A stretch of DNA of 55,683 nucleotides from a virus. Its lineage: Duplodnaviria; Caudoviricetes. The translations under genes were made by a program, and so were the position numbers. Shown piece by piece: positions 1-38,259 of this stretch (its first letter is position 1; each line of letters opens with the position of its first letter). The stretch is taken from positions 1 to 55,683 of IMG/VR virus record IMGVR_UViG_3300023174_000203, one strand, 5' to 3'. A model generated the notes under the pieces. It had not been told where the DNA came from, made no database searches, and worked only from the letters and a program-made list of their open reading frames with translations.

Positions 1-503
1 TTATTACCTTCAGGTAATACCACCCTCGCTTGTTCTTTTGCAATACCATTATTGATAGCCCATTCATATGCTTCTTTAGAAGACTCAATAACTAATTGCT
101 GCTTTTGATTCCATTGATCTTGCAATACTGTGTCATTAGTTTCAATACTATTCTGGCGATTCTTTGTGTCTTGAAGTCGTGCTTCACGTAATTTAAAATT
201 TAAGTCTTTAGTAGGGTCTGCATAACGCTGACTAAACTCTTGAAAACTAAAGCTACGATGACGAAGCATCTGTCTTGCAATATCACGTGTTGTTTCAATC
301 TCTAAACATGCACTCACCATTTCCAGAGGAGACCAATGCTTATGCTTAACAAGATATTTGATAAGCTTATCTGATGTCTCTGTATTTAATTGATTGCTTG
401 GGTTTGAAACTCTTGCACAAAATGCTATTAAATCTTGTATATTATCAACAGTTGCTGGCATAGATCCAGCAGGTTCAGAATAACTAATCAACTTCACCTT
501 CAT
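1..503 (-). CDS. thyX: FAD-dependent thymidylate synthase (partial, runs off window)
   Basis: Manual translation from ATG 503: MKVKLISYSEP...ARVSNP...HWSPLEM...RDIARQMLRHRSFSFQEFSQRY; ThyX signature RHRx7S. Confidence 0.95.
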   Translation of the reverse strand, partial: MKVKLISYSEPAGSMPATVDNIQDLIAFCARVSNPSNQLNTETSDKLIKYLVKHKHWSPLEMVSACLEIETTRDIARQMLRHRSFSFQEFSQRYADPTKDLNFKLREARLQDTKNRQNSIETNDTVLQDQWNQKQQLVIESSKEAYEWAINNGIAKEQARVVLPEGN

Positions 504-8394: not shown

Positions 8395-8403
8395 AATACG
8401 TCC

Positions 8404-8772
8404 TTAATCTAATTTGTTAACTGGTGTTGATGACCAAAATCTGCAAGACCAATAACGTGCTTTCCATTTTGGTCCTGGATCTGTATCACAATGATGTCTT
8501 GCTCTAAAGCTTCTTCTAGCATCGGGATTATCTCTACGAATCTCCATATTCGGATCACCGAAACCGAGCTTAATGATATTGCCTTTATCGTTTTTTACGT
8601 AAACATAACGCTTATGCTTAGAATCACCTGAGAATGGCTTATCTAACTTGACTTTATGCCCATGATAGTCTGATTCTAGAAGTACTTCAACGAACTCTTG
8701 CTCAGTCCATTCTTGGACAACTTCGCCTTCGTCCCAGTACTTTTCTTCCATGTGGTTTTTTAATGTTTTCAT
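8404..8772 (-). CDS. Conserved basic phage protein (DUF6321-like)
   Basis: FGDPNM..RRSFRARHHC...ARYWSC motif; N-terminus MKTLKNHMEE resembles a capsid-targeting leader. Confidence 0.6.
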   Translation of the reverse strand: MKTLKNHMEEKYWDEGEVVQEWTEQEFVEVLLESDYHGHKVKLDKPFSGDSKHKRYVYVKNDKGNIIKLGFGDPNMEIRRDNPDARRSFRARHHCDTDPGPKWKARYWSCRFWSSTPVNKLD

Positions 8773-8793
8773 ATATTATCCAATATTTATTAA

Positions 8794-11640
8794 TTAGTCA
8801 TTATCAATAATCTTCAATTTTCGCTGTGCTTTAATATTACGCGAGATCAAATAATTAGATAGGTTATCAACATCCTTATCATTACCTGGACCTGGTTCTT
8901 GATTCAGGTTTTTAGGTAATGTTTGGAAACGTGGGTCATCAGCAAGATGCGCTGATGGTGGACGTTCAGTATTTCCACTTTGAGCATCTACGATCTTTCT
9001 GTATATATCAACAACATAACCATGCTCTGAATTGAGGTTCATATCACCAGCAAACTTCATTACTTTCATTGCTGCTAGTTTTGCTGCTGCAACATCTTCT
9101 GGAGTTGCAAACTTAGATACTTGAACTTTCTTCCAGATTCCAAATAGGTTATCTTGTTCTTGTGCAGCCATCGATGCCATGTTTGGATCAGTTCCTTTTG
9201 GAAGATTCATGTAAAGCTTTTGTGCTTCAGGACTTGTTTCAAAATGCTTTGAACGATATGAACCAACAAAGATCTGATCTTCAGGATCATTCTCCATTTG
9301 CTTACTCGAGCGAACTGTAGTGCTTGTCATTTTAGGTGCAGCTTTCATCTCTTTAAATGACATAATCTTTCTAACTTCAGGATGATGTTCAAATCCACCT
9401 AAACTCTCATTTGTTGTTTTTGCTCTAGCGTTTTGAAGCTGTCTTTTAAACCCTTGTGCTGTAGTACTGTCACCACGCTGAAGAGCACCTGCTATCTTTT
9501 TATGTATCGCAGCAGCAACGTGTTTACCCGCTTTAGCCATGGCTGCAGCAGCTCTTAGATGTGAAGCTGCATCTTCATTGATCTCTACTTCTTCTTTTCT
9601 AAGTGCATCGATCTCTTTCTGCTTTTGAGCAATTCTCTTCTTATACTCTTCAGGATCAGGTAGACCAGATTTCTTACGAAGTTCTTGATGACGACGATAC
9701 GCTTTTTCTGCAGCAGTTTCTTTAGGCATCTTAAAAGCTTCTTGAGCGCTCTTTAATGCATCTTTAGTTGGTGCACCTTTTGAACCTGGCTTACGCATAC
9801 GCTCACCTGAACCATTCTTAATACGTTCACGCTTGGCATGAATATTGGCCCAAAGACCAGCTTCATTAAGACCTTCTTTTTTCACCTTTGCCCATAGATC
9901 TGCATCAGCAGTTGTTCTTGTCTTACCACCAGATAAGAATGAATTTACTCGTGCAAATGCCCATTGTTGTGGTGTTGTTCCAGGACGGTGACTCGATTTA
10001 TATGCACCCATTCCACGCTTAAATACTTGCTTTAGAATACCAAGAGACACACCTGATTTTTCTGCTTTTTTCTTTAGACCATCAACAGCTTCTTCACTGA
10101 TCTCGGTCATCTCGATACGATCCATTACATTTTCAATGATCGTCAATAACTCATCGGTGTCATCTTTCTCTTCACCGATCATCTTCTTGAAGTTAGTATA
10201 GTTAGCACTTGCATTTTTAATGAATGCTAGTTTATCAGCGGGCTTCTTAAGCCCGAAATAATGATCGAGCGCTTTACGAGCTTGATCTGGTTTAATCATT
10301 ACTGCAGGACCTTGATCAAACGTAACATCCTTTTTACCATGCATTGAGATGGATTTTTGAAGTTGAATAATCAGATTCTGATCTGCTTCACGACCATTAT
10401 CTGGACCGTAATCCTCTTCACCATCTTCTTTAGCTTTTACTTTTGCTGCAGCTGCACGTTTAGCAAGCGTCTCAGGTTTAGCTGGACGACCGCGGCGTTT
10501 TACTTGCTGTGACATCTCTTTAAATGAAACCATTTCCATAATATCGTTTTCCTCTTTCACAGGCTTAATAGGTTGTGCTTTCATAGCTTGACCTAAATTA
10601 AATGATCTCAGTCTTTGAACTTCTTTCTTACGAACAGTAGGTAATAAACGTGATGCGATTCGCTTAATCAATGCTCCCTTTTTATCAATAGTCCTATCAA
10701 CTGCAATTTTATCTGATGGCGATAACTCATGATACTTAACACCTCTTTGACCTGCAAATCTCTTACGAGCAACATCTCTTGCCATTCTTTGCGCTCTAGC
10801 TTTTAACTTAGGAGTACCTGCTAATCTACGTTGTGCAAGTTGTTTGGCACGTAAAATCTTTGTCTTATACTTGCGCATAAGGATCTTACGCTTAATTCTT
10901 TGCTGAAGATTTAATACTGCTTCATTCAACAGACCTTCAGCTTCTAATTCGTTTTCCATCTCTTCACGAATATGCATCTCAACTTTTAATACGTTGAATA
11001 TCTCTGTAGCTACTGATTTAAGCTTAGATGGAAGACCTGACTTAAATGCCTTAATATCGTTCTCTCGTACTGCTTGTCTCATCTTAGACGCTGACATACC
11101 TGCTACTCCTTCTGCATCGGGATCACGCTCACCAGCGGATTCAACAACGATGCTATCAAAATTATATTCTTTTCCGTTATACTTGTTTAATAGTGAACTA
11201 AATTCATTCACACGATCTGAACCTACTACAACTGTAATATTTTTATATGTGTTCTCTAATTCTTTTAATACCTCAATAATAGTCTTTGCCTTTGAAACAT
11301 GCATAAGATCGCCAAATGCTTCGCGAGCATATTTCATCTTGTCTTTGTATGACAATGGATTCTTTTTACTATCTTGGGAGTGTGAGAGATATACTAGTGG
11401 TTTTGCTCTTTTACTTGCTGCAATCTTTTTGACTGCTTCCACTAGCTTTTGATGTCCTACAGTAGGAGGATTAAACCTACCGAAAGTTAGCACCACGGCG
11501 TTACCTGCTTGTTCGGCCACCTCGGATGGCACCTTTGGGTTTATTTCTATCTTATCAAGTTGCTTCTTACTAGTCGAAAAACCAGCTGAGGAGGCTTTTG
11601 GGGGAGTCTTTGACTTGTTTATTTCAATCTTCTTTTCCAT
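8794..11640 (-). CDS. 948 aa multidomain protein: HxGH-class nucleotidyl(cytidylyl)transferase plus C-terminal basic modules
   Basis: TFGRFNPPTVGH, VVGSDRV, SAGERDPD, MSASKMR; later GMGAYKSSHRPGTTPQQWAFARVNSF and GLWANIHAKR modules. Confidence 0.8.
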   Translation of the reverse strand: MEKKIEINKSKTPPKASSAGFSTSKKQLDKIEINPKVPSEVAEQAGNAVVLTFGRFNPPTVGHQKLVEAVKKIAASKRAKPLVYLSHSQDSKKNPLSYKDKMKYAREAFGDLMHVSKAKTIIEVLKELENTYKNITVVVGSDRVNEFSSLLNKYNGKEYNFDSIVVESAGERDPDAEGVAGMSASKMRQAVRENDIKAFKSGLPSKLKSVATEIFNVLKVEMHIREEMENELEAEGLLNEAVLNLQQRIKRKILMRKYKTKILRAKQLAQRRLAGTPKLKARAQRMARDVARKRFAGQRGVKYHELSPSDKIAVDRTIDKKGALIKRIASRLLPTVRKKEVQRLRSFNLGQAMKAQPIKPVKEENDIMEMVSFKEMSQQVKRRGRPAKPETLAKRAAAAKVKAKEDGEEDYGPDNGREADQNLIIQLQKSISMHGKKDVTFDQGPAVMIKPDQARKALDHYFGLKKPADKLAFIKNASANYTNFKKMIGEEKDDTDELLTIIENVMDRIEMTEISEEAVDGLKKKAEKSGVSLGILKQVFKRGMGAYKSSHRPGTTPQQWAFARVNSFLSGGKTRTTADADLWAKVKKEGLNEAGLWANIHAKRERIKNGSGERMRKPGSKGAPTKDALKSAQEAFKMPKETAAEKAYRRHQELRKKSGLPDPEEYKKRIAQKQKEIDALRKEEVEINEDAASHLRAAAAMAKAGKHVAAAIHKKIAGALQRGDSTTAQGFKRQLQNARAKTTNESLGGFEHHPEVRKIMSFKEMKAAPKMTSTTVRSSKQMENDPEDQIFVGSYRSKHFETSPEAQKLYMNLPKGTDPNMASMAAQEQDNLFGIWKKVQVSKFATPEDVAAAKLAAMKVMKFAGDMNLNSEHGYVVDIYRKIVDAQSGNTERPPSAHLADDPRFQTLPKNLNQEPGPGNDKDVDNLSNYLISRNIKAQRKLKIIDND

Positions 11641-11713: not shown

Positions 11714-12948
11714 CTATCTCTGCCAACCTTTAATTATATCAGGTGAAAAGTTGGCACGACTGAATTCTAAACGATCTACGATCTTAACTGCACCACCTGT
11801 TAGATGATCAATAGCAACAAAACCTTCGACTCCAGTAGTCTTGAATCCTGATGCAGTTTTTAAGAACGTCTTAATATGTCCTGCTGAGTTCATCTTATTG
11901 ATAATCATATTTTTTGCATCGATGATCAGATTTGCTAGATCGAATATTTGAGCAATGTCGGTCTTATCATGGTCAATAAAGAACTTTAATACTTTCTTTC
12001 TAGCTGCTTCTTGTGTTGCTTTTCCAGCCTCTGTCTTCTTCTTATCCATCTCTTTTTGATAGCGATCATGGATAAAATTATAGAGATCATTTACATGCTT
12101 ATTTGTGTTAGTGATCTTCTCTGAATTCCTGATCTTAGAGTTATTAAACATCTTTACCATGTTTAACAGATCGTTATCCTGATGGATTGCGTTAATTGTA
12201 CCTGATGTAGTTGCATTAAACAACTTACCGATCTTTGATAAGATTGCAGTTAATTCGGCAGTCTCTGTTGCAGTAAATGTTGCAGTGCCAGAATAATCTT
12301 TATAGTTAGCATCATCCATCCATACAGACTTCACATGCTTTAAGTTTGCAATAATACTTTTACCAAATGATGCTTTCATTGTCTCGAGAGTATCACCTTC
12401 ATACGTAGTATGCCATACGACACCCACATTTGCAGCATTAATCATTTTAGCAAGTGCACTATTAGCTGGAACGGCATAGACGATCGTATTAGGATGAAAA
12501 GTAATATAGTCTTCTTCACCTATAGTAGCAGTCTTAACATCACCTTTAGTGAACATCATATCGCCTTGATATACTCCGCTCTTGATTCCAAGTTTAGAGA
12601 ATTCTTTTAACGCGACTTTAAACTTTGTATTCAGATCTCCACTTAGATTGGCATCGATGTCTTTATCGGTCTTATAGACTTCAGGATTCTTATTGAAGAT
12701 TCCTTTTTTTGCAACGAAGAACTTACCATCTGCAGGATCGACACCAGCAAATATAGCAGGAGCACCATCCCATTTTACAGTAGCAGCAACTTTAGTCTTT
12801 GTTTGACCAGCAAGCATGTCACGAAGATCACGTAGGAAGTTAATCGCTTTACGAGTTCCATCAACACCCTCATTGAAGATGAGATCTTCTAAAGATGCTC
12901 CATATGAACGTTCTTTTGTTCAACAATATGATCTTTAAACTTTAGCAT
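11714..12948 (-). CDS. Ligase-like KxDG nucleotidyltransferase (DUF6267-like), interrupted by a 2-nt frameshift at 12890-12891
   Basis: GGAGG SD and ATG 12948 give MLKFKDHIVEQKNVHMEHL-stop; removing 2 nt continues EDLIFNEGVDG... into the 367 aa ORF with VKWDGAP, QGDMMF, EGFV, KIVDR (410 aa in total). Confidence 0.8.
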
Positions 12949-13589
12949 ACAGAGCCCTCCTTTCTTTCTTTTCTAGGTTTCATTTTCCCGCGTCCTTTTA
13001 CATATCCTTCTGGTTGAGTTCCTTCAGTAACATATATTGAAGTTTCACCATTATTATACCACTTTAGATTCTTTTCCTTAACTGCGCTTCTTCCATACAT
13101 TGGGTTATTATTTCCAGACACATCATGACCATGCATGTTTTTTACTCTATCTCTTCTTTGTTCTTCTGTTAAACTGTCCCAATGTTTCTTAACTTGTTTA
13201 GAAGTTGACTTCCCATACATTGGATTATTTTTTCCAGTCTTATCTACAGTTTTCATATATGAATTTCTAGATTTTCTTTCGTCCTCAGTTAAAAATGACC
13301 AATACTTTTTAACAGTTTCCGGGTTGCCTCCATAACCGCCTTCAGACAAATTATAAAATTCTTCTGAATTTACTGCATCATATAATTCTATCCATTTTCT
13401 TTCGGCTCTAGATACTTCTTCTATACTTAAACATTCTTCTAAAATAATCTTTTCAAAATTTTGTTTTCCATATTTTTTAATTGCTGCTAGTATTAATGGT
13501 CCTGATCCAAGATAAGAATCATCATTTCGTGTTGAATACCCAATATACTTTTTACCGTTTATTTTATTTGTCGTCAAATATACATGCAT
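12942..13589 (-). mobile_element. Free-standing GIY-YIG homing endonuclease (Seg-like) with NUMOD3 repeats
   Basis: HVY...KKYIG, YLGSG, E..WI, FYN motifs; two G.NNPMYG repeats; own late promoter and AGGAGG SD. Confidence 0.9.
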
Positions 13590-24613: not shown

Positions 24614-25087
24614 TTACTCATCAGATTTTTCTTTGATAGAAATTTTCTTTGCTTTCTTAGCTTCTGGAATTAGTCTTTCTAACCAGATTTTCAATAGACC
24701 ATTAATATATTCTGCGTTCTTAATCTCTACAGAATCTGCAATAGTGAATGAACGAGTGAAAGCGCGATCGGAGATACCTTTCCACAGATAGTTGACATTG
24801 TCACTTTCTTCTGTTTCCGATCCAAGTATTGAACTGCCCTTTACTGTAAGAATGCCTTCATTGATCTCAACGTCTAGTTCTTGTTTAGAAAAACCAGCAA
24901 CGGCAAGTTCAATGACGTATCTGTTTTCATCAACTTTTTTGATGTTGTATGGAGGATAGTTCGGAATGTTTTTGGTTAGGTCATTATGAAGCTTAGTTAG
25001 TCTGTTGAGTTGTTCATCAAAACCAACAAAATGTTTATCAAAGTCCTTAAAACCGGGGCCAAACATTGCTAGATGATTCACGGTCAT
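24614..25087 (-). CDS. Small heat-shock protein (Hsp20/IbpA-like)
   Basis: YPPYNI, IELAVAGF, KGISDRAFTRSF, NGLLKI; start 25087 follows AGGAG. Confidence 0.95.
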   Translation of the reverse strand: MTVNHLAMFGPGFKDFDKHFVGFDEQLNRLTKLHNDLTKNIPNYPPYNIKKVDENRYVIELAVAGFSKQELDVEINEGILTVKGSSILGSETEESDNVNYLWKGISDRAFTRSFTIADSVEIKNAEYINGLLKIWLERLIPEAKKAKKISIKEKSDE

Positions 25088-25154
25088 GCTTTTTTCTCCT
25101 ATTAAGCGAGTAATTAAAATGTAGATCCCTAAGGCATCTACAGGTTTATTTATA
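25088..25154 (-). promoter_or_regulatory. Late promoter (25147-25154) and structured leader with ROSE-like hairpin
   Basis: TATAAATA; hairpin TGTAGAT...ATCTACA; CTCGCT-TAAT-AGGAG SD-sequestering hairpin. Confidence 0.65.
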
Positions 25155-25155
25155 T

Positions 25156-25231
25156 TGGAGCGGATGATCAGGTTCGAACTGACGACATTCTGCTTGGAAG
25201 GCAGACGCTCTACCAACTGAGCTACATCCGC
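25156..25231 (-). tRNA. tRNA-Gly (TCC)
   Basis: 76 nt cloverleaf GCGGATG...CATCCGC-T-CCA; anticodon arm TCTGC-CTTCCAA-GCAGA. Confidence 0.97.
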
Positions 25232-25703: not shown

Positions 25704-25719
25704 GATAAAGCTTTATGGG

Positions 25720-25790
25720 CTACGATGCACGGACTCGAACCGCGACAGGCAGTTTTGGAGACTGCAGTGCTACCATTACACCACACCGTA
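25720..25790 (-). tRNA. tRNA-Trp (CCA)
   Basis: Acceptor TACGGTG/CATCGTA, anticodon arm GCAGT-CTCCAAA-ACTGC, T loop TTCGAGT; followed by CCCA. Confidence 0.92.
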
Positions 25791-25800
25791 ATTCTCTTTT

Positions 25801-29494: not shown

Positions 29495-29510
29495 AATATA
29501 TTACTTCCTT

Positions 29511-30416
29511 TCATTTGGGTTCTGCAAACACATATAGATTACCACCTTGATATGTATGCCACGGGACACAATACATGGTGATATTTGTTTTCGTTAATTC
29601 AGGGAATGTGTTGATAAACCAATTTAGATTATCAATACTACCATTAAATTCACATTGAAATAAAATTAGCCAATCGCAAGCACCAACTTTCTTGATGATT
29701 CTTTCACGATACTCAATCTGAGTTTCACTAAATGAATGTGTTCCTATTAGAAGAACTTTCTTTCCAGTAAAATCAGGAAGTTGATCGATATCACTTGCTG
29801 TTTTAATATCAGCAAGATCTTCATTGTAGTACTTAACGATCTTAGTCATAGGATCAAAGTCTACATCCCAATACTCACCTTTGAATCCATGTAGATGAAT
29901 GAGTCTTGCTAACTCACCCATACCACCGCCAATTTCAATGATCACATCATAATCACTGATCTTTTTACCAGTTTCTTTTTCATACTTAACTATATTATGA
30001 AGTTTGATTGGCTGAAGATAGTTAGTAGTTACTGAATTATCTTTATCACCAACTTTAATAGAAAAGTTATAGGTAGTTCTTTCATTGAAACCATTCCTAT
30101 ATCCTCTATCAGTTTCTTCTAGCATCTTAATATATGTAAGTTTACTTTCATCTGAATTAGTTGAAAGCATTTCCCATGTATCTCTTAGATAAGCAGTTGA
30201 TAAACGATGCATTTCCTCTGATGCTTGTACAAAGATAGGAACACGATAGATGATTGCTTCATCTTTAAATCCATACAACCGTTTCTCATCAGCAAATACC
30301 TGCTCAAAAAGAGCAGGTACCTTTTCCCAATATTGAGGATCATCTTGAGCAGGATATTGTGCAAGAATTGGATCAATGATCTCCAAATCTTGATTTGTGT
30401 TATATACAAAATCCAT
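29511..30416 (-). CDS. SAM-dependent methyltransferase (putative sugar O-methyltransferase)
   Basis: IIEIGGGMGELAR motif I, DVD, HSFSE. Confidence 0.65.
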   Translation of the reverse strand: MDFVYNTNQDLEIIDPILAQYPAQDDPQYWEKVPALFEQVFADEKRLYGFKDEAIIYRVPIFVQASEEMHRLSTAYLRDTWEMLSTNSDESKLTYIKMLEETDRGYRNGFNERTTYNFSIKVGDKDNSVTTNYLQPIKLHNIVKYEKETGKKISDYDVIIEIGGGMGELARLIHLHGFKGEYWDVDFDPMTKIVKYYNEDLADIKTASDIDQLPDFTGKKVLLIGTHSFSETQIEYRERIIKKVGACDWLILFQCEFNGSIDNLNWFINTFPELTKTNITMYCVPWHTYQGGNLYVFAEPK

Positions 30417-30417
30417 A

Positions 30418-31368
30418 TTATTTCTTCTTTATCTTTTCAATGTCTGCAGTTGCAGATGCACCAATAGAAGCAAGATCAGCAAGCGATCCACCAAATACAT
30501 AACTACCAACGTGCTGCAGTTTCATCCAAGGATTCAACCATACTTTTAGACCAGCGTTTTGTGCGTAGTAACAGAACATATAATCTTCTGATAGATAACG
30601 CTTAGAAGATGTTTTTTCTGCTTCAAGCATTGTCTGTGCACGCTTTACTAATGCTTCAGGTTTTTCACCATTAGCAAGATCTTCCATCAAACGATGCACA
30701 TCATCAAAAGTATAACCACGATCGATAACACAATCAAAGTAAGCATGAATTTCACGTGAACCATCAAATGCTTCTGTACGTACATGATCAGGTTTATACG
30801 AAAGAGAAGGATATGCTTTTTCTATAGTTTCAAACGTAGAACGACGGATCATCATGAATCCAGTTCCACCTTCACGCACTTCAACTGGTTGATTGATAGG
30901 GATTTCGTTCTGACCACTCTTAGGATTAAATACATAATCACCAACGTAGCGCTCTAAAACATTAGCATCATTATCAGCAACACCCTTATCTACTGCTTGC
31001 TTGATCTTTTCCCATGAGATACACTTCTTAGGATATGGTCCACACATAACATCATATTCAGTTTCATCTCCCATCAAAGCAAGCATCGCAACTACGTCTT
31101 GAGCAGAGAATCCAATATCACTATCAATGAACATCATGTGAGTTGCATTTGAACGCAAGAACTCATCAGCACAATAGTTACGTGCACGAGTAATCAACGA
31201 TTCATTGAATAAGAAATAGAATTGAAGTTGAATACCATAGTTAGTACATAGCGCAGAAAGATCTGCGATTGAACGAGTGAACATACCTGCACATTGTCCA
31301 CCATACATAGGTGCTGATACAAACAATTTACGTTTGCGCAGCTCATCAGTTGAGATTTTAATCTCCAT
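30418..31368 (-). CDS. GT-A fold glycosyltransferase-like protein
   Basis: PMYGG, ESLITRARN, FIDSD (DxD), GTGFMMI, LSEDY, LQHVG. Confidence 0.8.
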   Translation of the reverse strand: MEIKISTDELRKRKLFVSAPMYGGQCAGMFTRSIADLSALCTNYGIQLQFYFLFNESLITRARNYCADEFLRSNATHMMFIDSDIGFSAQDVVAMLALMGDETEYDVMCGPYPKKCISWEKIKQAVDKGVADNDANVLERYVGDYVFNPKSGQNEIPINQPVEVREGGTGFMMIRRSTFETIEKAYPSLSYKPDHVRTEAFDGSREIHAYFDCVIDRGYTFDDVHRLMEDLANGEKPEALVKRAQTMLEAEKTSSKRYLSEDYMFCYYAQNAGLKVWLNPWMKLQHVGSYVFGGSLADLASIGASATADIEKIKKK

Positions 31369-31649
31369 TATTTACTCTCCTTTTTATTTTCACTTTGATC
31401 GTGAACATGTAATTGCAAAATTGCGTAATGAATTATCTTCATCAGGTCTTTACGCGCTTCACCTGATTTTTTTCCATACCTACCTGAATATTTTTGAATG
31501 CAGCCGATGTTGAATCCTGTGCCATGACCTGTTGCGATGATTAAATCCATTGGTTGAACTTCATCGCCGTAGTGTGCACCATAGCAGGCATTGACGTAGT
31601 CGGTTATTTCTTTTATATACTTGTCTTCATTAAACCGATACTTGCTCAT
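31368..31649 (-). CDS. DUF3310-like protein
   Basis: HY...GFNIGCIQKYSGRYGKK...DLMKIIHY. Confidence 0.75.
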   Translation of the reverse strand: MSKYRFNEDKYIKEITDYVNACYGAHYGDEVQPMDLIIATGHGTGFNIGCIQKYSGRYGKKSGEARKDLMKIIHYAILQLHVHDQSENKKESK

Positions 31650-32664
31650 GATCTATAACTTTCTTCAAATAATTATGTGCTACACTTAAAGCAGAAGAAA
31701 CTGCTTGGTGCATATCAATGTAAACATACATTCCACATCGCCCGATAAATGTCATCTTAGGATGTTTAATCGCGGCATATAGTTTATATATCTCCCTGTT
31801 CGTGCCCGATAGATCTTTTACAGGATAATATCTTTCCATATTATTTGTACGATAGTCACAAGGTTCTTCATACGTGAGAGTTGTCATTTCAGGATTATGC
31901 CCATGATTAGGAATATTCTTCCATTCTGTCATTCGAGTATAAGGGCCATGATGCGTAAAATTTACTGTTGTCGTAGGAAGAATTCTTGGAGCAGGAATAT
32001 CGACATGATGGAACTTGATTGAACGGTAAGGTAATTCTCCATGACAGTAGTCATGATAGACATCAATTGGCATCGAATTAAAAATGTGGTCATAATCTTT
32101 CTCCATTGATTTATCAAAAGATGTTCCTAATGATACAGTGATACCTTCCCAATCAAGCATATTAGAGATAAGAGCAGTATACCCATCTCTTGGTATCGCT
32201 TGATATTCATCATCAGGAAAATAGTATTCATTAAAGTCATTTCTAATTGGTACACGATTTATAATTGATGGATCTAATTCTTCAATATCCATTCCCCACA
32301 TCTTTTTAGTGTATGGGCGAATAAAGATATCAACGATATTATCTTCACCAACAATATCTTTTGTAGCACGATTAACTGGCAATGTAACATAATCACCATT
32401 GCTTAATAGAGCTTTTACTTTATGCTTATATGGAATCCACTCAGTGAATCGTCCTAGATAATCATAAACCTTTTTATTGTTTGTATGAAATAGATGAGGG
32501 CCATACGCATGCATTCTAATTTTATGGTCATTTACAAAATCATATGCATTACCTGCAATGTGATAACGCTTATCAATGATAGTTACATTATGACCAGCTT
32601 CAGCAAGTTCTCTAGCAATTACAGCACCAGAGAATCCTGCTCCAACTACTAAGATTTTAGACAT
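31630..32664 (-). CDS. glf: UDP-galactopyranose mutase
   Basis: GAGFSG, HIAGNAYD, YGPHLFHT, YTKKMWG, LPYRS, ERYYP, GRCGMYVYIDM. Confidence 0.93.
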   Translation of the reverse strand: MSKILVVGAGFSGAVIARELAEAGHNVTIIDKRYHIAGNAYDFVNDHKIRMHAYGPHLFHTNNKKVYDYLGRFTEWIPYKHKVKALLSNGDYVTLPVNRATKDIVGEDNIVDIFIRPYTKKMWGMDIEELDPSIINRVPIRNDFNEYYFPDDEYQAIPRDGYTALISNMLDWEGITVSLGTSFDKSMEKDYDHIFNSMPIDVYHDYCHGELPYRSIKFHHVDIPAPRILPTTTVNFTHHGPYTRMTEWKNIPNHGHNPEMTTLTYEEPCDYRTNNMERYYPVKDLSGTNREIYKLYAAIKHPKMTFIGRCGMYVYIDMHQAVSSALSVAHNYLKKVIDHEQVSV

Positions 32665-33674
32665 AGATTAAGCTCCGCCTTTTGTGTTTCTTTATTGAGA
32701 GGGTGTATTCTATATAGCGCTTCTCTCTGTGCTGCTGCCAAATCTTCGAGTTCTTTATCACACATATCAACAAGATCTTTTGCTTTTATATCTGCAAGCG
32801 TTTCATCTTCATAGTAAATAAACATCTCATCTGGATCACCAATAAGAATAGATCCCGCATCTGCAACTTGAAGAGGTCTTGCTCTCCACCAACCAGATCC
32901 TGCATGAAAATATCCAGGCATTAAGATACCCCAATGTTCTGCATAGATATTTACCATCACGTCTTCAGTTACACGATCTTGACCATCTTTTCGTGAACCA
33001 TATTTCATCAAAGGCCAATCATTATCATTAATACCTTGTGCTTTAAGCCACTTCTTTGTTTTATCTTGAATTAATCCTGCAAAATTAAATATACGTTGTT
33101 TAGGTTCAACAACAAGATTATTTGGTTTACGATTGAGATGATAAGGATTTGGGTTATACGTAAATATTTTATCGCGTGGATAATCTAATAGAAGAGTAGG
33201 ATCACCACCACGAAATGCAGAGATTAATAGATTATTAGTTTTAGATTGAATAAGATCCAATGCTTCAACAAAATCTTTTTCCCATTCAGTTACATTTTCT
33301 GGGATATTGGTATGACTTTCAAGAACGTATTTTCGAAATAGTTTTTCGGGGTCTCTAAGCGCGAGCAATCCTGAGTAGATACTATCAGTTTGCCAGTCAT
33401 CAAATGCAAGAGTACAGTCTCTTCTTCTAGCAATCGTATAGAGCGCGTTATATACATAAGCAGCGAAACCTGAAGGATTGTGAATATACACAATAACTTT
33501 GTCGTATTTGTCAAGATTTTCTCCAATATCTACAACTCGCTGCTCTACTTCATGTCCCATATCACGGAGACAACGAATTAAACTATAATGTGATGGAACA
33601 ACTTTAAGCTGTTGACTTGCATAGAAGTCTTCAGTGCACTGCAGCTTATTCATTCCTGTGATTAGTATTTTCAT
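32649..33674 (-). CDS. GT-B DNA glycosyltransferase, distant T4 beta-glucosyltransferase homolog
   Basis: Colinear matches to recalled T4 BGT segments: MKILI, KVVPS, RDMGHEV, DKYDKVIV, FDDWQ, ARPLQVADAGSILIGD, AAQREAL; similar length. Confidence 0.65.
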   Translation of the reverse strand: MKILITGMNKLQCTEDFYASQQLKVVPSHYSLIRCLRDMGHEVEQRVVDIGENLDKYDKVIVYIHNPSGFAAYVYNALYTIARRRDCTLAFDDWQTDSIYSGLLALRDPEKLFRKYVLESHTNIPENVTEWEKDFVEALDLIQSKTNNLLISAFRGGDPTLLLDYPRDKIFTYNPNPYHLNRKPNNLVVEPKQRIFNFAGLIQDKTKKWLKAQGINDNDWPLMKYGSRKDGQDRVTEDVMVNIYAEHWGILMPGYFHAGSGWWRARPLQVADAGSILIGDPDEMFIYYEDETLADIKAKDLVDMCDKELEDLAAAQREALYRIHPLNKETQKAELNLCLKS

Positions 33675-34546
33675 TTTAACTCCATCTCATATGCTGATCT
33701 ACACATATCAGCCAACGATCTTTCAACTGTTAGATACTCAGAAGTTCCATCGATTTCAAGAATATCAGGATCTCCTTCACGACGTGGACCAAATTCTTCA
33801 AGCCAACTTTTGCCTGTAACATCTTTCATTATATCAAGAACCTCTAAATTTGTAAACCCTTTATTTGAACCAAGGCATTCATATTCAGCATTCTTAGGAT
33901 TAGAAAAAGCAGCATTCACTATCGCTTTAGCAAGATCAACAACATGAATATAATCCCTAATACAAGTACCATCTCGTGTAGGATAGTCACCTCCATTTAT
34001 GATTACCTTTTCTCTTTTACCTGCAGCAGCTTCTGCAGCAACTCTAATTAAATGTGTTGAGGGACCAAACTGACGATGTTCACCATTAGAACCAGCAACA
34101 TTGAAGAATCTAAAGATTGTATAACCAGGTGCTAACTGTCGAATAACATCTTCAGCTGCTACTTTAGATTTTGCATATGGAGAAACAGGATCAAATGCTC
34201 CTGCTGTTGATGCGAATATAAAATGTTTACACTTTACATTCTTAAGAATATTAATTGTTCCATTTAAATTAGTATCGTAGTATTCATATGGCTTTTCCAT
34301 ACTCTCACCAACTCGTACTAATCCAGCAAGATGAATTACTACGTCATACATAAGACCATGTTGAATATCACGCACATCTTTTTGTATAAGCGTATGACAA
34401 TATGGATTAATATAATTTCTATATGCTGTGTCTATATCAAGAGCTGTAATATAAACTTCACGTGCATTTACTTGCTTATATAATTCTTTCAATACATGAG
34501 CACCAATATAACCCGTAGCTCCTGTTACTAATATGCTTGTAGCCAT
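33671..34546 (-). CDS. galE: UDP-glucose 4-epimerase
   Basis: TGATGYIG, HLAG, FAST, YAKSK, RFFNVAG, DGTCIRDYIHVVDLA, RREGD. Confidence 0.9.
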   Translation of the reverse strand: MATSILVTGATGYIGAHVLKELYKQVNAREVYITALDIDTAYRNYINPYCHTLIQKDVRDIQHGLMYDVVIHLAGLVRVGESMEKPYEYYDTNLNGTINILKNVKCKHFIFASTAGAFDPVSPYAKSKVAAEDVIRQLAPGYTIFRFFNVAGSNGEHRQFGPSTHLIRVAAEAAAGKREKVIINGGDYPTRDGTCIRDYIHVVDLAKAIVNAAFSNPKNAEYECLGSNKGFTNLEVLDIMKDVTGKSWLEEFGPRREGDPDILEIDGTSEYLTVERSLADMCRSAYEMELK

Positions 34547-34890
34547 TCTTTACAATCCTTTAATATCTCATTTACTTTATCATGATCGTTCATCATTCTA
34601 TTTCTAGGTGATGGATGTGGCAAGGTGTAATGCTCGATGCCTAGTGTATTTAGCGTCTTCGAAACATGACCACCTAATGCAATCACACGATAATAGTCTA
34701 TAATTTGAACTAATAGACTATCATAATCTATTTCTTTAAAGTCCCATTCAGGATCATCAGAGAGATTTGTAAACGAGACGACGCCTGTGCCGAGATAATC
34801 AATCCACGAACACAGGCGATTCCAAGCTCCGTTCTTATGTACTTTGTTTGCTAATCGGGATGGGTTCAAACCCACTATTATAGTCTGCAC
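34528..34890 (-). CDS. Minimal uracil-DNA glycosylase-like protein
   Basis: IIVGLNPS, FTN, IALG, LPHPSPRN. Confidence 0.7.
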   Translation of the reverse strand: MQTIIVGLNPSRLANKVHKNGAWNRLCSWIDYLGTGVVSFTNLSDDPEWDFKEIDYDSLLVQIIDYYRVIALGGHVSKTLNTLGIEHYTLPHPSPRNRMMNDHDKVNEILKDCKEWLQAY

Positions 34891-35323
34891 AATATTCAGA
34901 ATATTTTACGCCTGCTTCATCAAACATATCTCGTGTGTCTTCCCACGATTTTAGCCAACGAAGATCAACGTATTGGTCAGTAAAAATATGAACTTCTTTA
35001 ATGCCTACTTGAATAATACCTTTAGCACATTCACTGCATATAGGAAGTCCATACACGTATAATGCTGCACCATCAAGAGATACACCAGAGAATGTCGCGT
35101 TATAGATAACGTTCATCTCAGCATGCACTACATATTTGTATTTAGTAGGCCTATCATCTAATCTTTCAATTGAATCATCAATGCCTCGAGGAAAACCATT
35201 ATAACCTTGAGAAAGAATTTGGCCTTTGCTTCCTACTGCAACAGCACCAATTTTTCTAGATGGATCTTTACTCCAATCAGAAACTTCTTTTGCAAGATTT
35301 AAATATCTTTTATTCCATCTCAT
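34835..35323 (-). CDS. dCMP deaminase
   Basis: WSKDP, GYNGFPRG, HAEMN, PICSEC. Confidence 0.93.
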   Translation of the reverse strand: MRWNKRYLNLAKEVSDWSKDPSRKIGAVAVGSKGQILSQGYNGFPRGIDDSIERLDDRPTKYKYVVHAEMNVIYNATFSGVSLDGAALYVYGLPICSECAKGIIQVGIKEVHIFTDQYVDLRWLKSWEDTRDMFDEAGVKYSEYCADYNSGFEPIPISKQST

Positions 35324-35967
35324 TTTACTAATCCAAAATGTCTTTCATATACATGAAGACTTCCTACACTCCAGATAATATCTCCAAGTTCAACACCAAG
35401 TTCATCGCATAATGCAAGAGCAACATATTCTTGCCATGCATAATCATTCTTATAACCGAAGACAACATCATTACTTCGCATTTGAACAACTACTTGTAGC
35501 TTATTATCACGAATCATGTATTGAACAGCATTTGTGCAGATGAAGTCACTCATACCATCAATATTATAATCATTCCAAATCATTGGACGAGTATAGATCA
35601 TGCATGCACGGCGAGAGAATGGATTACGACGAAGTTCTTCTAGAACATTTTGATATTGATTCCAGTTCTCATCATGCCAAATAAGATAACCATAGTTAGA
35701 ATTAATCCAACCTTGAGTAGATGCAACTTGTTTCCATATATCAGGAGGACCACCGGGAATATCACCAACATTCAATGACATTGATTTATACCAATCAAGT
35801 TCACGTTGAATATACTCTTGATTAGGAGTACCAAAGATTGCAGGTTTATCAGCCAAGAAAGTTGCACCGATAATCTCGATCATGTTGACGCCAGTTTTAT
35901 CCTGGACAAATTTCTTCTGTTCAAGATTGCGTACAAATATATCTCGAATGTTATCAATACTCATCAT
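35320..35967 (-). CDS. 42: dCMP hydroxymethylase (T4 gp42)
   Basis: DKTGV..IEIIGA, EYIQREL.WYKS, INSNYG, IYTRP, GMSDFICTN, MRSNDVVFG.KNDYAWQ, GSLHVY; Asp at the specificity position. Confidence 0.93.
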   Translation of the reverse strand: MMSIDNIRDIFVRNLEQKKFVQDKTGVNMIEIIGATFLADKPAIFGTPNQEYIQRELDWYKSMSLNVGDIPGGPPDIWKQVASTQGWINSNYGYLIWHDENWNQYQNVLEELRRNPFSRRACMIYTRPMIWNDYNIDGMSDFICTNAVQYMIRDNKLQVVVQMRSNDVVFGYKNDYAWQEYVALALCDELGVELGDIIWSVGSLHVYERHFGLVK

Positions 35968-36305
35968 GGTATCATCTTCCTATTCAAGAAGTCACGAGTA
36001 GTTGATTGACCTTCGATACCACCACGCATGTAAGCAACAAAGAACGATGCATAGTTAATTAGATCGACTGCTGAATCTTCCATTGATTCAAAGTTTGGAA
36101 CATAATTAGGATCATTTTCCATCGCTTCCATAACAGATTGAATGCGAAGAATTTTACCATTCATTACATCTAGAATTGATGCGCAACCACGTGGATAGTA
36201 GTCTGCTTGTTTGATACGACTATTAGGATTCTGATAATCGTTTGATTTGCGGGTTTGAATTTCAGCAGCTTGTTGTAGGACTTTTAAAGATTCTTTCATG
36301 TACAC
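35964..36305 (-). CDS. Nucleotide-modification-associated domain protein (DUF1599/Nmad1-like)
   Basis: KSNDY, KILRI, ESMEDSAVDLINYA. Confidence 0.7.
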   Translation of the reverse strand: MYMKESLKVLQQAAEIQTRKSNDYQNPNSRIKQADYYPRGCASILDVMNGKILRIQSVMEAMENDPNYVPNFESMEDSAVDLINYASFFVAYMRGGIEGQSTTRDFLNRKMIP

Positions 36306-36319
36306 TCCATAAAAAATAA

Positions 36320-36348
36320 ATTATATCACACATAAAAAAATAAGTACA
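36320..36348 (-). promoter_or_regulatory. Promoter TGTACT-N17-TATAAT driving the modification operon
   Basis: Exact motif and spacing. Confidence 0.8.
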
Positions 36349-36867
36349 CTATATATTTCTCACGTTATAATAATATCCATCCCCATAATTAGAAGGAGAT
36401 AACGCATTCATAACACGTTCAACCTTTTGAACTTCACATAATTTAAATTGAACAACATCACCTGCTCTCAATGGAGATTCAGGTGGTTTAGGATAATATT
36501 TGTAGAATGCAAAATGCGTTACATTTCCACTTCGTAGATTTTCCATGTAATAGATAGTCTTATCCTCTGGAACATTGAAGTATTTTGAAGTGATTATCTT
36601 ACAATCTACCTTTGTATCTTCAACAATAAAATCATGGTAGATATTTACTGGTTTTTCTACTAATTTTTTCTTTAGTAGTTGATATTCAATTGCAAGACAA
36701 TCAGCGTGCATTATGCGACGCCAATCTTCACGACCATTTGCACGAAACTTATTTTTCATCTTATCGCGAAAAGCGATAAATTCTTCAGTCACTTCAAATG
36801 TTTCAACTTCCTCATGAATATTAGAGAGGTAGTTGTACAGAGTTGAGGAGTCCGTGATTGTGTTCAT
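36349..36867 (-). CDS. PD-(D/E)XK nuclease, possibly DenB (endonuclease IV)-like
   Basis: AIE...YHDF...VDCK core and C-terminal SNYGDGYY; likely start 36867. Confidence 0.5.
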   Translation of the reverse strand: MNTITDSSTLYNYLSNIHEEVETFEVTEEFIAFRDKMKNKFRANGREDWRRIMHADCLAIEYQLLKKKLVEKPVNIYHDFIVEDTKVDCKIITSKYFNVPEDKTIYYMENLRSGNVTHFAFYKYYPKPPESPLRAGDVVQFKLCEVQKVERVMNALSPSNYGDGYYYNVRNI

Positions 36868-37240
36868 GTGAGGGTGCTTTCCATCCTTCAGGTTTAATAA
36901 GGTCAGGCAGACCAAGTGGATTAGGACGTGATTCTTTTATACCAATTTGTTTACTCATATTGGCTTTATGTACTTCGTCCCATGCCTTTTGTGCATCTAC
37001 ATTAAAAAGATCTAGAGTGCCAATTGCAACAACACAAAGATCGATCAATGCATCTACAACATCTTCTGCAGATTCTGCAGTTCTAAGTTCAGTCATTTCT
37101 TCTTCAAGAAATTTTACACGAAACTCTAGAAACTTTTTTAGTTTTTCAGAATCAAACTCTTGAATTTTTGGTTTTACACCATAGTGTTCATGCATATTGG
37201 CAATATCGCCAACCCAATCTGTTAACATGCTGTTCTCCAT
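36821..37240 (-). CDS. MazG-like all-alpha NTP pyrophosphohydrolase (putative dCTPase/dUTPase)
   Basis: FLEEEMTEL, DVVDALIDL, EVHKANMSK, KPEGW; TAATG-coupled start 37240. Confidence 0.85.
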   Translation of the reverse strand: MENSMLTDWVGDIANMHEHYGVKPKIQEFDSEKLKKFLEFRVKFLEEEMTELRTAESAEDVVDALIDLCVVAIGTLDLFNVDAQKAWDEVHKANMSKQIGIKESRPNPLGLPDLIKPEGWKAPSHEHNHGLLNSVQLPL

Positions 37241-37392
37241 TACTTGTCTTTTACGCCACATTGCTCTTCCTTTTTCTCAATACATATTGCTTGAACGGGT
37301 TTTGGATATTCAACATAGTTATCAATCACTTTTCCTGCTCCCCACCACCCAAAGTATGTAAAGAATCCTGCAACTATCCATTCAACAATCAT
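37240..37392 (-). CDS. Small membrane peptide
   Basis: MIVEWIVAGFFTYFGWWGA...; ATGA-coupled. Confidence 0.65.
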   Translation of the reverse strand: MIVEWIVAGFFTYFGWWGAGKVIDNYVEYPKPVQAICIEKKEEQCGVKDK

Positions 37393-37722: not shown

Positions 37723-38259
37723 TTACACATAAGAAATTTTCTTTTCTGACAATAAGTCATTTTTCTTAGCCCGGATGAACTGTTGCTTCTTTTTTAATGC
37801 TTTATCAAGATGATAACGATGTACTTTAGTTGTAAAATTTATACCTTCCATATGATCTAGCTCATGGAGGAAAACTCTAGCAGTAAGACCATCAAATTTC
37901 TCAGTAACCGTCTCACCATTTGGCATTGTGTAACGCACTTTGATTATTCTAGGACGTTTTATCTTAAGATATACATATTGATATGTTAAACATCCTTCTT
38001 CTAGAGCAATTTCTGTTTCGTATGATGCATCAATTATCCTAGGATTAAAACATGCCATTACAGGGTTGTTTGCGATCACAAATACGCGATAAGGAAGTCC
38101 ACATTGGTTAGCAGAAAGACCAAGACCGTTGTTTTTTAACATAGTCTCTGTTAGATTTTTTGCTAACTCAATAGGATCTATTGGAGGATCATCAAAATCA
38201 AAATGTTCTAGTTTAGTAGAAAGTAAAGGGTGATCAGGTTTAACTAATTCATATATCAT
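37723..38259 (-). CDS. def: Peptide deformylase
   Basis: GLGLSANQ, EGCL, HELDH motifs. Confidence 0.95.
   Translation of the reverse strand: MIYELVKPDHPLLSTKLEHFDFDDPPIDPIELAKNLTETMLKNNGLGLSANQCGLPYRVFVIANNPVMACFNPRIIDASYETEIALEEGCLTYQYVYLKIKRPRIIKVRYTMPNGETVTEKFDGLTARVFLHELDHMEGINFTTKVHRYHLDKALKKKQQFIRAKKNDLLSEKKISYV

Follow-up and report, generated by a model that had tools for sequence, protein, structure and literature searches.

Among the glycosylated cytosines of phage DNA, glucosyl- and gentiobiosyl-5-hydroxymethylcytosine (5hmC) are established in the T-even phages. Arabinosyl-5-hydroxycytosine is established in phages RB69 and DLP3, where the thymidylate synthase (TS) homologs, long annotated as hydroxymethylases, make 5-hydroxy-deoxycytidine monophosphate (5-hydroxy-dCMP) and where the sugar of the RB69-type arabinosylation cluster is D-arabinofuranose (Araf) (PMC13326640, 2026, cited here and below for the accessible part of its text). 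According to the same source, 5-hydroxycytosine carries Gal-Glc(-Glc) in Rhizobium phage RL38J1 and the Pootjesviridae, and a phage-encoded Glf, i.e., a uridine diphosphate (UDP)-galactopyranose mutase, was proposed to supply UDP-galactofuranose (UDP-Galf). In addition, BGT-like enzymes of the GT-B glycosyltransferase fold have been described as glycosylating 5hmC in dependence on a C5-methyltransferase and a 5mYOX (TET) enzyme, in a survey of GT-A and GT-B enzymes from about 25,000 contigs, where 28% of the GT-B were near TS homologs and epimerases were among the neighbours (Pyle et al., bioRxiv 2023.12.21.572611, for the accessible part of the preprint). The system considered here lies in IMG/VR record IMGVR_UViG_3300023174_000203, a viral contig fragment of 55,683 bp with a completeness of 31% by the collection's own estimate, which was analysed in its entirety and is referred to below as the window. 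On its minus strand (35967-31630), six overlapping genes encode in that order a gp42-type dCMP hydroxymethylase, a dCMP deaminase, a small protein with a putative uracil-DNA glycosylase (UDG)-like fold, a GalE-like epimerase, a 341-amino-acid (aa) BGT-like glycosyltransferase and a Glf. Taken jointly, these genes lead us to favour, if only slightly, a pathway where 5hmC takes the place of cytosine and is subsequently galactofuranosylated by the BGT-like transferase from UDP-Galf made by the phage itself.

The cluster is real and coherent, and is best read as a pre- plus post-replicative cytosine hypermodification operon. The six open reading frames (ORFs) delineated in the initial annotation are all present on the minus strand, with consecutive overlaps of 4, 56, 19, 4 and 16 nt, and the gene packing, mostly overlapping, extends upstream to 36305 and downstream to 29511. 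From 36305, the order is a 113-aa protein, the TS homolog, the dCMP deaminase, the 120-aa UDG-like protein, the GalE-like protein, the 341-aa protein, Glf, a DUF3310 protein, a 316-aa protein, a 301-aa protein and the sliding clamp. In the proposed pathway, (i) the gp42-type enzyme would convert dCMP to 5-hydroxymethyl-dCMP (5hm-dCMP), giving 5hmC DNA, (ii) thyX and the dCMP deaminase would cover the supply of deoxythymidine monophosphate (dTMP) and MazG-like enzymes may clear dCTP, (iii) the GalE-like protein would convert host UDP-glucose to UDP-galactopyranose (UDP-Galp) and (iv) Glf would contract the ring to yield UDP-Galf, the latter two steps being suggested by family and gene adjacency, and finally (v) the 341-aa enzyme would flip 5hmC from the duplex and transfer the furanose to the hydroxymethyl oxygen, resulting in Galf-5hmC, as its fold, gene context and domain fusions suggest.

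The base on which such a pathway would act is indicated by the TS homolog (215 aa; 35320..35967, minus strand), which scores 76.3 bits against PF00303 for a cut-off of 24.3 (E 2.8e-21) and finds its best solved match in the T4 dCMP hydroxymethylase (PDB 1b49, E 4.6e-82). In alignments with GenBank sequences, it is 62% identical to T4 gp42 versus 28% to RB69 gp48. The initial annotation had assigned it to the gp42 type on two motifs, namely SDFICTN with the catalytic Cys and NDYAW with an Asp; both are present and in register with T4 gp42, and the columns of the two residues, i.e., C144 and D175 (the latter at the position of ThyA-N177), are invariant with T4 gp42 and RB69 gp48. The roles of the catalytic Cys and of the Asp replacing ThyA Asn177, which relates to cytosine specificity, are described in PMC13326640, as is the marker of the 5-hydroxy-dCMP synthases, namely the replacement of Asp169 by Asn in the numbering of Escherichia coli ThyA. 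At this diagnostic position, Asp is found in the window protein and in T4 (MRSND), whereas RB69 exhibits Asn (MRSQN); together with the identity to T4 gp42, the presence of Asp where the 5-hydroxy-dCMP synthases have Asn bears out the gp42-type assignment. The acidic residue at the ThyA-143 position is also found as in T4, namely as an Asp at position -3 relative to the catalytic Cys. Because of these T4-type residues, the 62% identity and the match to 1b49, the base is predicted to be 5hmC and not 5-hydroxycytosine; 5hm-dCMP as the predicted product of the TS homolog is well supported, and the phage very probably builds 5hmC DNA. Immediately downstream, the dCMP deaminase (162 aa; 34835..35323, minus strand) matches PF00383 (dCMP_cyt_deam_1; E 1.5e-18) and phrog_174 (E 1.2e-40). 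A separate thyX, also reported in the initial annotation, is real (PF02511, E 7.5e-32), though cut by the end of the window, where it leaves an open frame of 168 aa (3..503, minus strand).

The proposed 5hmC-DNA furanosyltransferase (341 aa; 32649..33674, minus strand) has no match to any Pfam or NCBIfam family and corresponds only to phrog_14998, the function of which is not annotated; its description as a BGT-like GT-B glycosyltransferase comes from its predicted structure, and its proposed role from this fold, its gene context and the fusions of its relatives. The AlphaFold model, obtained with 58 homologs, has a predicted local distance difference test score (pLDDT) of 95.8 and a predicted TM score (pTM) of 0.92. 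When searched with Foldseek against the PDB, ranks 1-4 are all T4 BGT (E 4.3e-7 to 3e-6, TM 0.52-0.59), the list also including T4 AGT and the DNA glycosyltransferase of phage HY126. Likewise, in an all-against-all comparison with VIA-align over 48,161 chains, rank 1 is T4 BGT (1c3j, Z 17.3, rmsd 3.8, 290 of 333 residues aligned), followed by PimA (Z 15.9), then among others T4 AGT (14.8) and the HY126 enzyme (13.4), so that the BGT-like transferase put forward in the initial annotation has T4 BGT on top of both rankings. In the cluster of its protein-language-model neighbours, 40% of the members carry PF09198 (T4-Gluco-transf). At the sequence level, BLASTP of the 341-aa protein gives E 0.36 with T4 BGT and nothing significant with RB69 gp46 or gp47, and hhalign of its family with RB69 gp3 gives a probability of 1.8%. 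As such, the modelled protein is BGT-like in fold, yet outside the BGT sequence family. The family to which it belongs is large and nearly all viral, with 667 proteins at E <= 0.001 in a word-indexed search and 530 clusters at 50% identity in an exhaustive search at the same threshold. Three positions of the family alignment (G7, W94 and R264) do not vary, and D93 (in a DDW motif), W262 and R266 are, with others, nearly invariant; the catalytic base and the diphosphate clamp may plausibly be sought among these residues. Considering fold, context and fusions, the 341-aa protein is likely a DNA transferase.

Fusions were surveyed among the 150 best representatives of the family, of which 18 are at least 550 aa long. 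Thirteen of these long relatives bear an N-terminal C5-cytosine DNA methylase, with a UDG domain inserted between methylase and transferase in two of them and an intein within the methylase in two; the other five comprise one with a C-terminal class-I methyltransferase, one with a dUTPase_2 domain and three without Pfam match. A role of the transferase on cytosine in DNA, as put forward in the initial annotation, is thereby corroborated, and these methylase fusions are the strongest single argument for the family acting, as its sequences suggest, on C5-modified cytosine in DNA. Three of the fusions (P0197, P0222 and P0169), all from metagenomes, each consist of one polypeptide, with lengths from 1037 to 1409 aa. 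In P0197 and P0222, a C5-cytosine DNA methylase is joined to a UDG-superfamily domain and a BGT-like transferase domain, the methylase of P0222 and P0169 is interrupted by a LAGLIDADG intein, and no TET-like domain was seen in any of the three.

The gene neighbourhood was followed in 80 IMG/VR loci, counted as contigs, with relatives of the 341-aa protein at 36-99% identity, the flanks of which were scored with the window proteins. The upstream flank exceeds 3 kb in 56 loci, and 50 of these have a gp42-type gene, defined as at least 45% identical, at most 4 kb upstream of the transferase and on the same strand; the downstream flank exceeds 1.5 kb in 71 loci, of which 52 have a Glf starting at most 1.5 kb downstream of the transferase. 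Where both flanks are available (47 loci), gp42 and Glf occur together in 30, gp42 only in 11, Glf only in five and neither in one. The transferase thus travels with gp42 and with Glf rather than independently of them, in keeping with the linkage presumed in the initial annotation. Six loci have no gp42-type gene nearby, and for five of them the whole contigs were searched: on both jumbo contigs (292 and 350 kb), a divergent TS homolog is found in addition to a canonical ThyA, contig L096 has a short TS match 3 kb upstream of the transferase, and on the two others, which are 10-20% fragments, no TS homolog was found. Among five contigs from the group without adjacent Glf, the single near-complete one (97%) carries Glf 54 kb away, and the four fragments have no Glf on the whole contig. 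Upstream of the transferase, a homolog of the dCMP deaminase is present in 39 of the 56 loci, and one of the 113-aa protein in 50 of the 56, i.e., as faithfully as gp42.

Homologs of the 341-aa protein also occur in 38 records of the annotated phage collection. In Aeromonas phage Aes012 (Tulanevirus) and Erwinia phage FBB1 (Roskildevirus), the transferase adjoins Glf and each genome has a gp42 type at 57% identity; among cultured phages, gp42, Glf and the transferase are found together in the Aeromonas Tulanevirus phages Aes012, 25 and phiAS4 and in the Erwinia phage FBB1. Directly after the Glf-transferase pair of Aes012 stands a 348-aa protein without Pfam family (8123-9169), which could be a second transferase. 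The six-frame Glf match in the Aes012 record (JN377895.1) is in two pieces with one TAA inside, the record annotating one Glf coding sequence, and this split may be a sequencing error or a cross-frame alignment artefact. Within the replication module of the freshwater actinophage DSL-LC01, Glf comes after a transferase homolog. The closest named relative of the 341-aa protein (41%) belongs to Kyanoviridae phage C48C1 (OQ984149.1), where 5586-9033 encodes a Tet_JBP dioxygenase (472 aa), the transferase and Glf, in that order, and where no TS homolog was detected in the genome. This order suggests a second, post-replicative route to a 5-hydroxymethylpyrimidine beside the transferase-Glf pair, possibly acting on 5-hydroxymethyluracil (5hmU) and not on 5hmC. 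A gene of the isocitrate-lyase/PEP-mutase family lies 5 kb upstream in C48C1. Finally, a distant homolog is found in Morganella phage Rgz1 (hhalign probability 100%, E 2.2e-40) inside an RB69-type arabinosylation cluster.

As regards the donor, the GalE-like UDP-hexose 4-epimerase (291 aa; 33671..34546, minus strand) matches PF01370 (E 1.5e-32), has 7k3p as best PDB match (E 6.6e-42) and exhibits, in its translation and in the alignment with 7k3p, the Gly-rich motif for nicotinamide adenine dinucleotide (NAD) and the catalytic Tyr-x3-Lys. The 33 best of its 37 PDB sequence matches are named UDP-glucose/UDP-galactose 4-epimerase, one of them being the bifunctional GAL10. The protein is short compared with the about 330-340 aa of GalE. 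A clear GalE homolog (at least 35% identity) is found in nine of the 80 loci and a weaker short-chain dehydrogenase/reductase (SDR; 25-35% identity) in 18 more; in the named Aeromonas and Erwinia carrier phages, no GalE homolog was found, and these would rely on host UDP-galactose. The Glf (344 aa; 31630..32664, minus strand) matches PF03275 (E 3.3e-52) and, in its N-terminal part, NAD_binding_8 (E 1.2e-17); its best PDB match is 3hdq (E 2.5e-74), and its best matches are all UDP-Galp mutases. Identical residues are kept with the Deinococcus radiodurans enzyme through both aligned blocks, and the Arg, Tyr and Trp positions that we take to be substrate-binding in that enzyme are identical in the alignment of Glf with 3hdq. 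From their sequences, the window proteins are filed as Glf-like and GalE-like, UDP-Galp being the presumed substrate of the former, and Galf appears as a reasonably probable candidate for the transferred sugar.

Between the deaminase and the GalE-like genes lies the putative mini UDG-fold protein (120 aa; 34528..34890, minus strand), which matches only the C-terminal half of the PF03167 profile, at 17.5 bits for a cut-off of 24.3 (E 0.0046). It is a real, conserved gene: homologs are present in 24 of the 80 loci and end 3-39 nt before the transferase gene in 22 of these 24. In an alignment of 19 sequences of this family, G7, P10, F40, N42, H92, P93, S94, N97 and R98 are invariant, which outlines the motifs G-x-x-P, F-x-N and H-P-S-x-x-N-R. 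The model (pLDDT 81) finds its best folds in SMUG1, family-4 UDG and TDG, the matches being weak (E 3e-3 or worse, TMq 0.6-0.69). SMUG1 and TDG act on 5hmU and oxidised 5-methylcytosine. The protein is probably an accessory recognising or flipping modified pyrimidines, or else a repair glycosylase for 5hmU or U. Its placement in the same subfamily as the UDG domain of the methylase-UDG-transferase fusions found no support, the hidden Markov model of the family having matched none of the 150 representatives (E <= 10) and BLASTP against P0197 giving E 0.075.

Several points weigh against galactofuranosylation of 5hmC, for which we infer both the sugar and the acceptor. For the transferase, the Pfam search gave no match to PF09198 at E <= 0.01, the family profile had only chance matches among all PDB sequences (E 1.5), and hhalign of the family with T4 BGT is marginal (probability 56% over 73 N-terminal columns); since many GT-B enzymes reach Z 13-16 with the model, the acceptor is not given by the fold alone. 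Regarding the donor, the GalE-like protein scores 200.9 bits with TIGR01179, below the equivalog cut-off of 262.3, and Glf 284.6 bits with TIGR00031, just below the cut-off of 303.75, the Glf alignment moreover skipping about 36 residues of the solved enzymes; for these reasons, the exact substrates of both enzymes are not certain. The 80 loci were recruited by similarity to the 341-aa protein, near-duplicates included, so that the locus counts represent contigs and not independent events. Glf is not adjacent in 19 of the 71 loci, and the homolog of Rgz1 adjoins an arabinose-5-phosphate isomerase and another candidate transferase, i.e., an arabinofuranose context; because of these two facts, the transferase family does not dictate Galf. 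Lastly, neither a gp1-type deoxynucleoside monophosphate (dNMP) kinase nor a gp56-type dCTPase was recognised in the window, which represents about 31% of the genome.

Different readings of the operon can be set against these data. A different sugar or architecture, namely another furanose on 5hmC, such as L-arabinofuranose, N-acetylgalactofuranosamine (GalfNAc) or one supplied by the Glf-like mutase as another nucleoside diphosphate-furanose, or Galf as second sugar on a first one installed by another enzyme, e.g., the 316-aa protein, and possibly O-methylated by the 301-aa protein, would fit the sub-equivalog scores of both donor enzymes, the 18 relatives out of 80 with an SDR at 25-35% identity in place of a clear GalE, the family member beside another candidate transferase in an arabinofuranose cluster and the resemblance of two further operon genes to a glycosyltransferase and a sugar O-methyltransferase. 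Against it, the best PDB matches are all GalE for the epimerase and all UDP-Galp mutases for the mutase, and the 316-aa family is huge, occurs in phages without the transferase and is found at 10 of the 80 loci, the methyltransferase-like gene being found at two; such a scheme is rather unlikely. The genes for GalE, Glf and the GT-B enzyme could instead be auxiliary glycan genes for the host surface or virion proteins, the DNA containing plain 5hmC. Glf normally serves cell-surface glycans, and aquatic T4-like phages have many glycosyltransferases. Indeed, in the case of DSL-LC01, the Glf beside the homolog of the 341-aa transferase was read as a cell-wall auxiliary gene in the accessible text of PMC10611076. 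This view is countered by the linkage to gp42 in 50 of 56 loci, the location of the C48C1 transferase between a TET/JBP dioxygenase and Glf, the fusion of 13 of the 18 long relatives to a C5-cytosine DNA methylase, the high rank of T4 BGT and of further DNA glycosyltransferases in the fold searches and the family member inside a DNA arabinosylation cluster, and it appears quite improbable. As for the TS homolog making 5-hydroxy-dCMP as in RB69, DLP3 and RL38J1, with the sugar ether-linked directly to C5, this chemistry has been shown for several TS homologs formerly called hydroxymethylases and RL38J1 pairs it with a phage Glf (PMC13326640); the TS alignment speaks against 5-hydroxycytosine, with 28% identity to RB69 gp48 versus 62% to T4 gp42 and with Asp, not Asn, at ThyA-D169, and this reading was rejected on that ground and is given hardly any weight.

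Beyond the window, the Galf-5hmC reading can be extended to a broader and more tentative one, held with somewhat less than even confidence, where a large family of BGT-like furanosyltransferases acting on DNA, with the 341-aa protein as its founding member, is coupled to three acceptor routes, i.e., the nucleotide-level gp42, the TET/JBP dioxygenase and the fused C5-cytosine methylase, and to two donors, namely UDP-Galf and UDP-Araf, a UDG-fold module frequently lying next to the transferase or within it. Galf-5hmC would then be an undescribed DNA base, widespread among T4-like phages of aquatic origin and also carried by Aeromonas and Erwinia phages in culture.

Other genes in and around the operon may contribute to nucleotide pools or to further decoration. 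Upstream, the 113-aa protein (35964..36305, minus strand) is weakly related to phage MazG-like hydrolases (phrog_18404 'hydrolase', E 2.7e-11) and may act on the nucleotide pool or form part of the pathway, and the MazG-like nucleotide pyrophosphohydrolase (146 aa; 36821..37261, minus strand), which matches phrog_671 (E 1.1e-22) and the PDB entry of DR2231 (E 1.3e-6), is a candidate dCTP/dUTP-clearing enzyme; neither of the two proteins showed similarity to the T4 gp56 dCTPase, the MazG-like one by BLASTP. Downstream of Glf, the DUF3310 protein (93 aa; 31368..31649, minus strand; PF11753 E 1.9e-7, phrog_480 E 3.8e-26) has a counterpart about 1 kb downstream of Glf in C48C1. It is followed by a probable GT-A-like glycosyltransferase of 316 aa (30418..31368, minus strand), with matches to phrog_1574 (E 3.7e-63) and, weakly, to a glycosyltransferase PHROG (E 1.3e-4), and by a protein of 301 aa (29511..30416, minus strand) resembling S-adenosylmethionine-dependent methyltransferases (TIGR04371, E 3.1e-5, 23.7 bits for a cut-off of 44), which has no Pfam match and is, on this resemblance, a possible sugar O-methyltransferase. 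The 316-aa family is very large, all 8000 scored candidates having E <= 0.001; it occurs in phiM12-like, Cr30, DLP_6 and Synechococcus phages, i.e., in phages without the transferase, and in none of the four named transferase carriers, and the two loci with the methyltransferase-like gene are the closest of the 80. As such, membership of the 316-aa and 301-aa genes in the pathway is not supported by co-occurrence, and in this particular phage the two proteins may provide further sugar decoration.

The phage itself is T4-like, with the gp43 polymerase, the gp41 helicase, UvsX, the gp44/62/45 clamp loader and clamp, gp46/47, gp55, a DNA helicase and gp23, and the long ORFs of the window are all on the minus strand. 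Its major capsid protein is closest to that of Stenotrophomonas phage DLP_6 (72%), then to those of Methylophilales, Sinorhizobium phiM12-like and Pelagibacter myophages. A megablast of 29500-36400 against 50,697 phage records gave zero matches, and the PADLOC models, applied to six proteins of the region, gave only three weak matches, all to a 188-aa ORF (36349-36915). Elsewhere in the window, two ORFs on the minus strand are each exactly 948 aa long, the first (5548-8394) without family and the second (8794-11640) with a cytidylyltransferase-like domain and DUF5824, and they are followed by a DUF6267 protein (11714-12817, minus strand). A homing-endonuclease-like gene is found at 12942-13589 (minus strand). 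Genes for tRNA-Gly(UCC) and tRNA-Trp(CCA) lie at 25156-25231 and 25716-25791 (minus strand), respectively; since the listed TTG start of an Hsp20 gene (24614-25216, minus strand) overlaps the tRNA-Gly gene, its true start is probably later. A peptide deformylase gene is found at 37723-38259 (minus strand).

If the proposed pathway is correct, a hexofuranose would be added to the few sugars so far listed on 5hmC, namely glucose and gentiobiose, and the enzyme family installing it would be named; phages would appear to combine, in a modular fashion, the enzymes making the acceptor, the pathways making the donor and the transferases. Genomes with Galf-5hmC would be expected to respond differently to type IV nucleases of the GmrSD/BrxU type, to DNA glycosylase defences and to CRISPR effectors tuned to glucosyl-5hmC, and the phage should gain protection from restriction enzymes, from CRISPR and from nucleases adapted to 5hmC in its plain or glucosylated form. 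Such a modification would be relevant to host-range prediction and to enzymatic tools for 5hmC labelling, and it would re-interpret phage Glf genes annotated as cell-wall auxiliary genes. The interest resides mainly in a transferase family that is large, unnamed and modular and in its cultured carriers; since these phages carry the gp42, Glf and transferase set, the prediction is directly testable.

With respect to the described systems, the literature search, with most subscription journals outside its reach, retrieved no report of galactofuranosyl-5hmC or of a link between Glf and 5hmC. The initial annotation had gone further in stating that no Glf-dependent DNA modification was known, which is out of date in view of the phage UDP-Galf proposed for the Gal-Glc-5-hydroxycytosine of RL38J1 (PMC13326640). 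On sequence grounds, what would be new here is a 5hmC-type acceptor together with a transferase family without relative found in RL38J1, in whose whole genome the profile of the 341-aa family matched nothing at E <= 1. From what is accessible of PMC13326640, the window and RL38J1 share a phage Glf proposed for glycosylating a C5-oxygenated cytosine, the two Glf being 34% identical, but differ in the acceptor, which is 5-hydroxycytosine made by a D169N TS homolog in RL38J1 whereas the TS homolog of the window is of the hydroxymethylase type, as well as in gene layout, the RL38J1 Glf being far from the TS and glycosyltransferase genes (locus tags 084 vs 214-216) and that of the window standing in one operon with the GalE-like gene. 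The same source, in the part available, describes for RB69 and DLP3 a phage-made furanose donor (UDP-Araf) and GT-B enzymes acting on DNA, as proposed here, and the 341-aa homolog of Rgz1 (E 2.2e-40) sits in such a cluster; the base (5-hydroxycytosine), the sugar (a pentose) and the donor pathway are different, and no similarity of RB69 gp46/47 or gp3 to the 341-aa family was detectable. With the enzymes of Pyle et al. (bioRxiv 2023.12.21.572611), as far as the preprint is accessible, the family has in common its fusions to C5-methylases (13 of the 18 long forms) and its Tet_JBP neighbour in C48C1, and it is set apart by terms, namely furanose, mutase, UDG and fusion, that have no occurrence in the main text of that work. 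With the T4 system, the window shares a hydroxymethylase with 62% identity and the same active-site residues, a GT-B transferase for which T4 BGT is the best structural match, and a transferase gene shortly downstream of gene 42. The two differ in that the window transferase is outside the PF09198 sequence family and its predicted sugar is a furanose, in that the window phage encodes its own donor pathway, i.e., GalE-like plus Glf, where T4 uses host UDP-glucose, and in that a gene for the putative mini UDG-fold protein lies beside that of the transferase.

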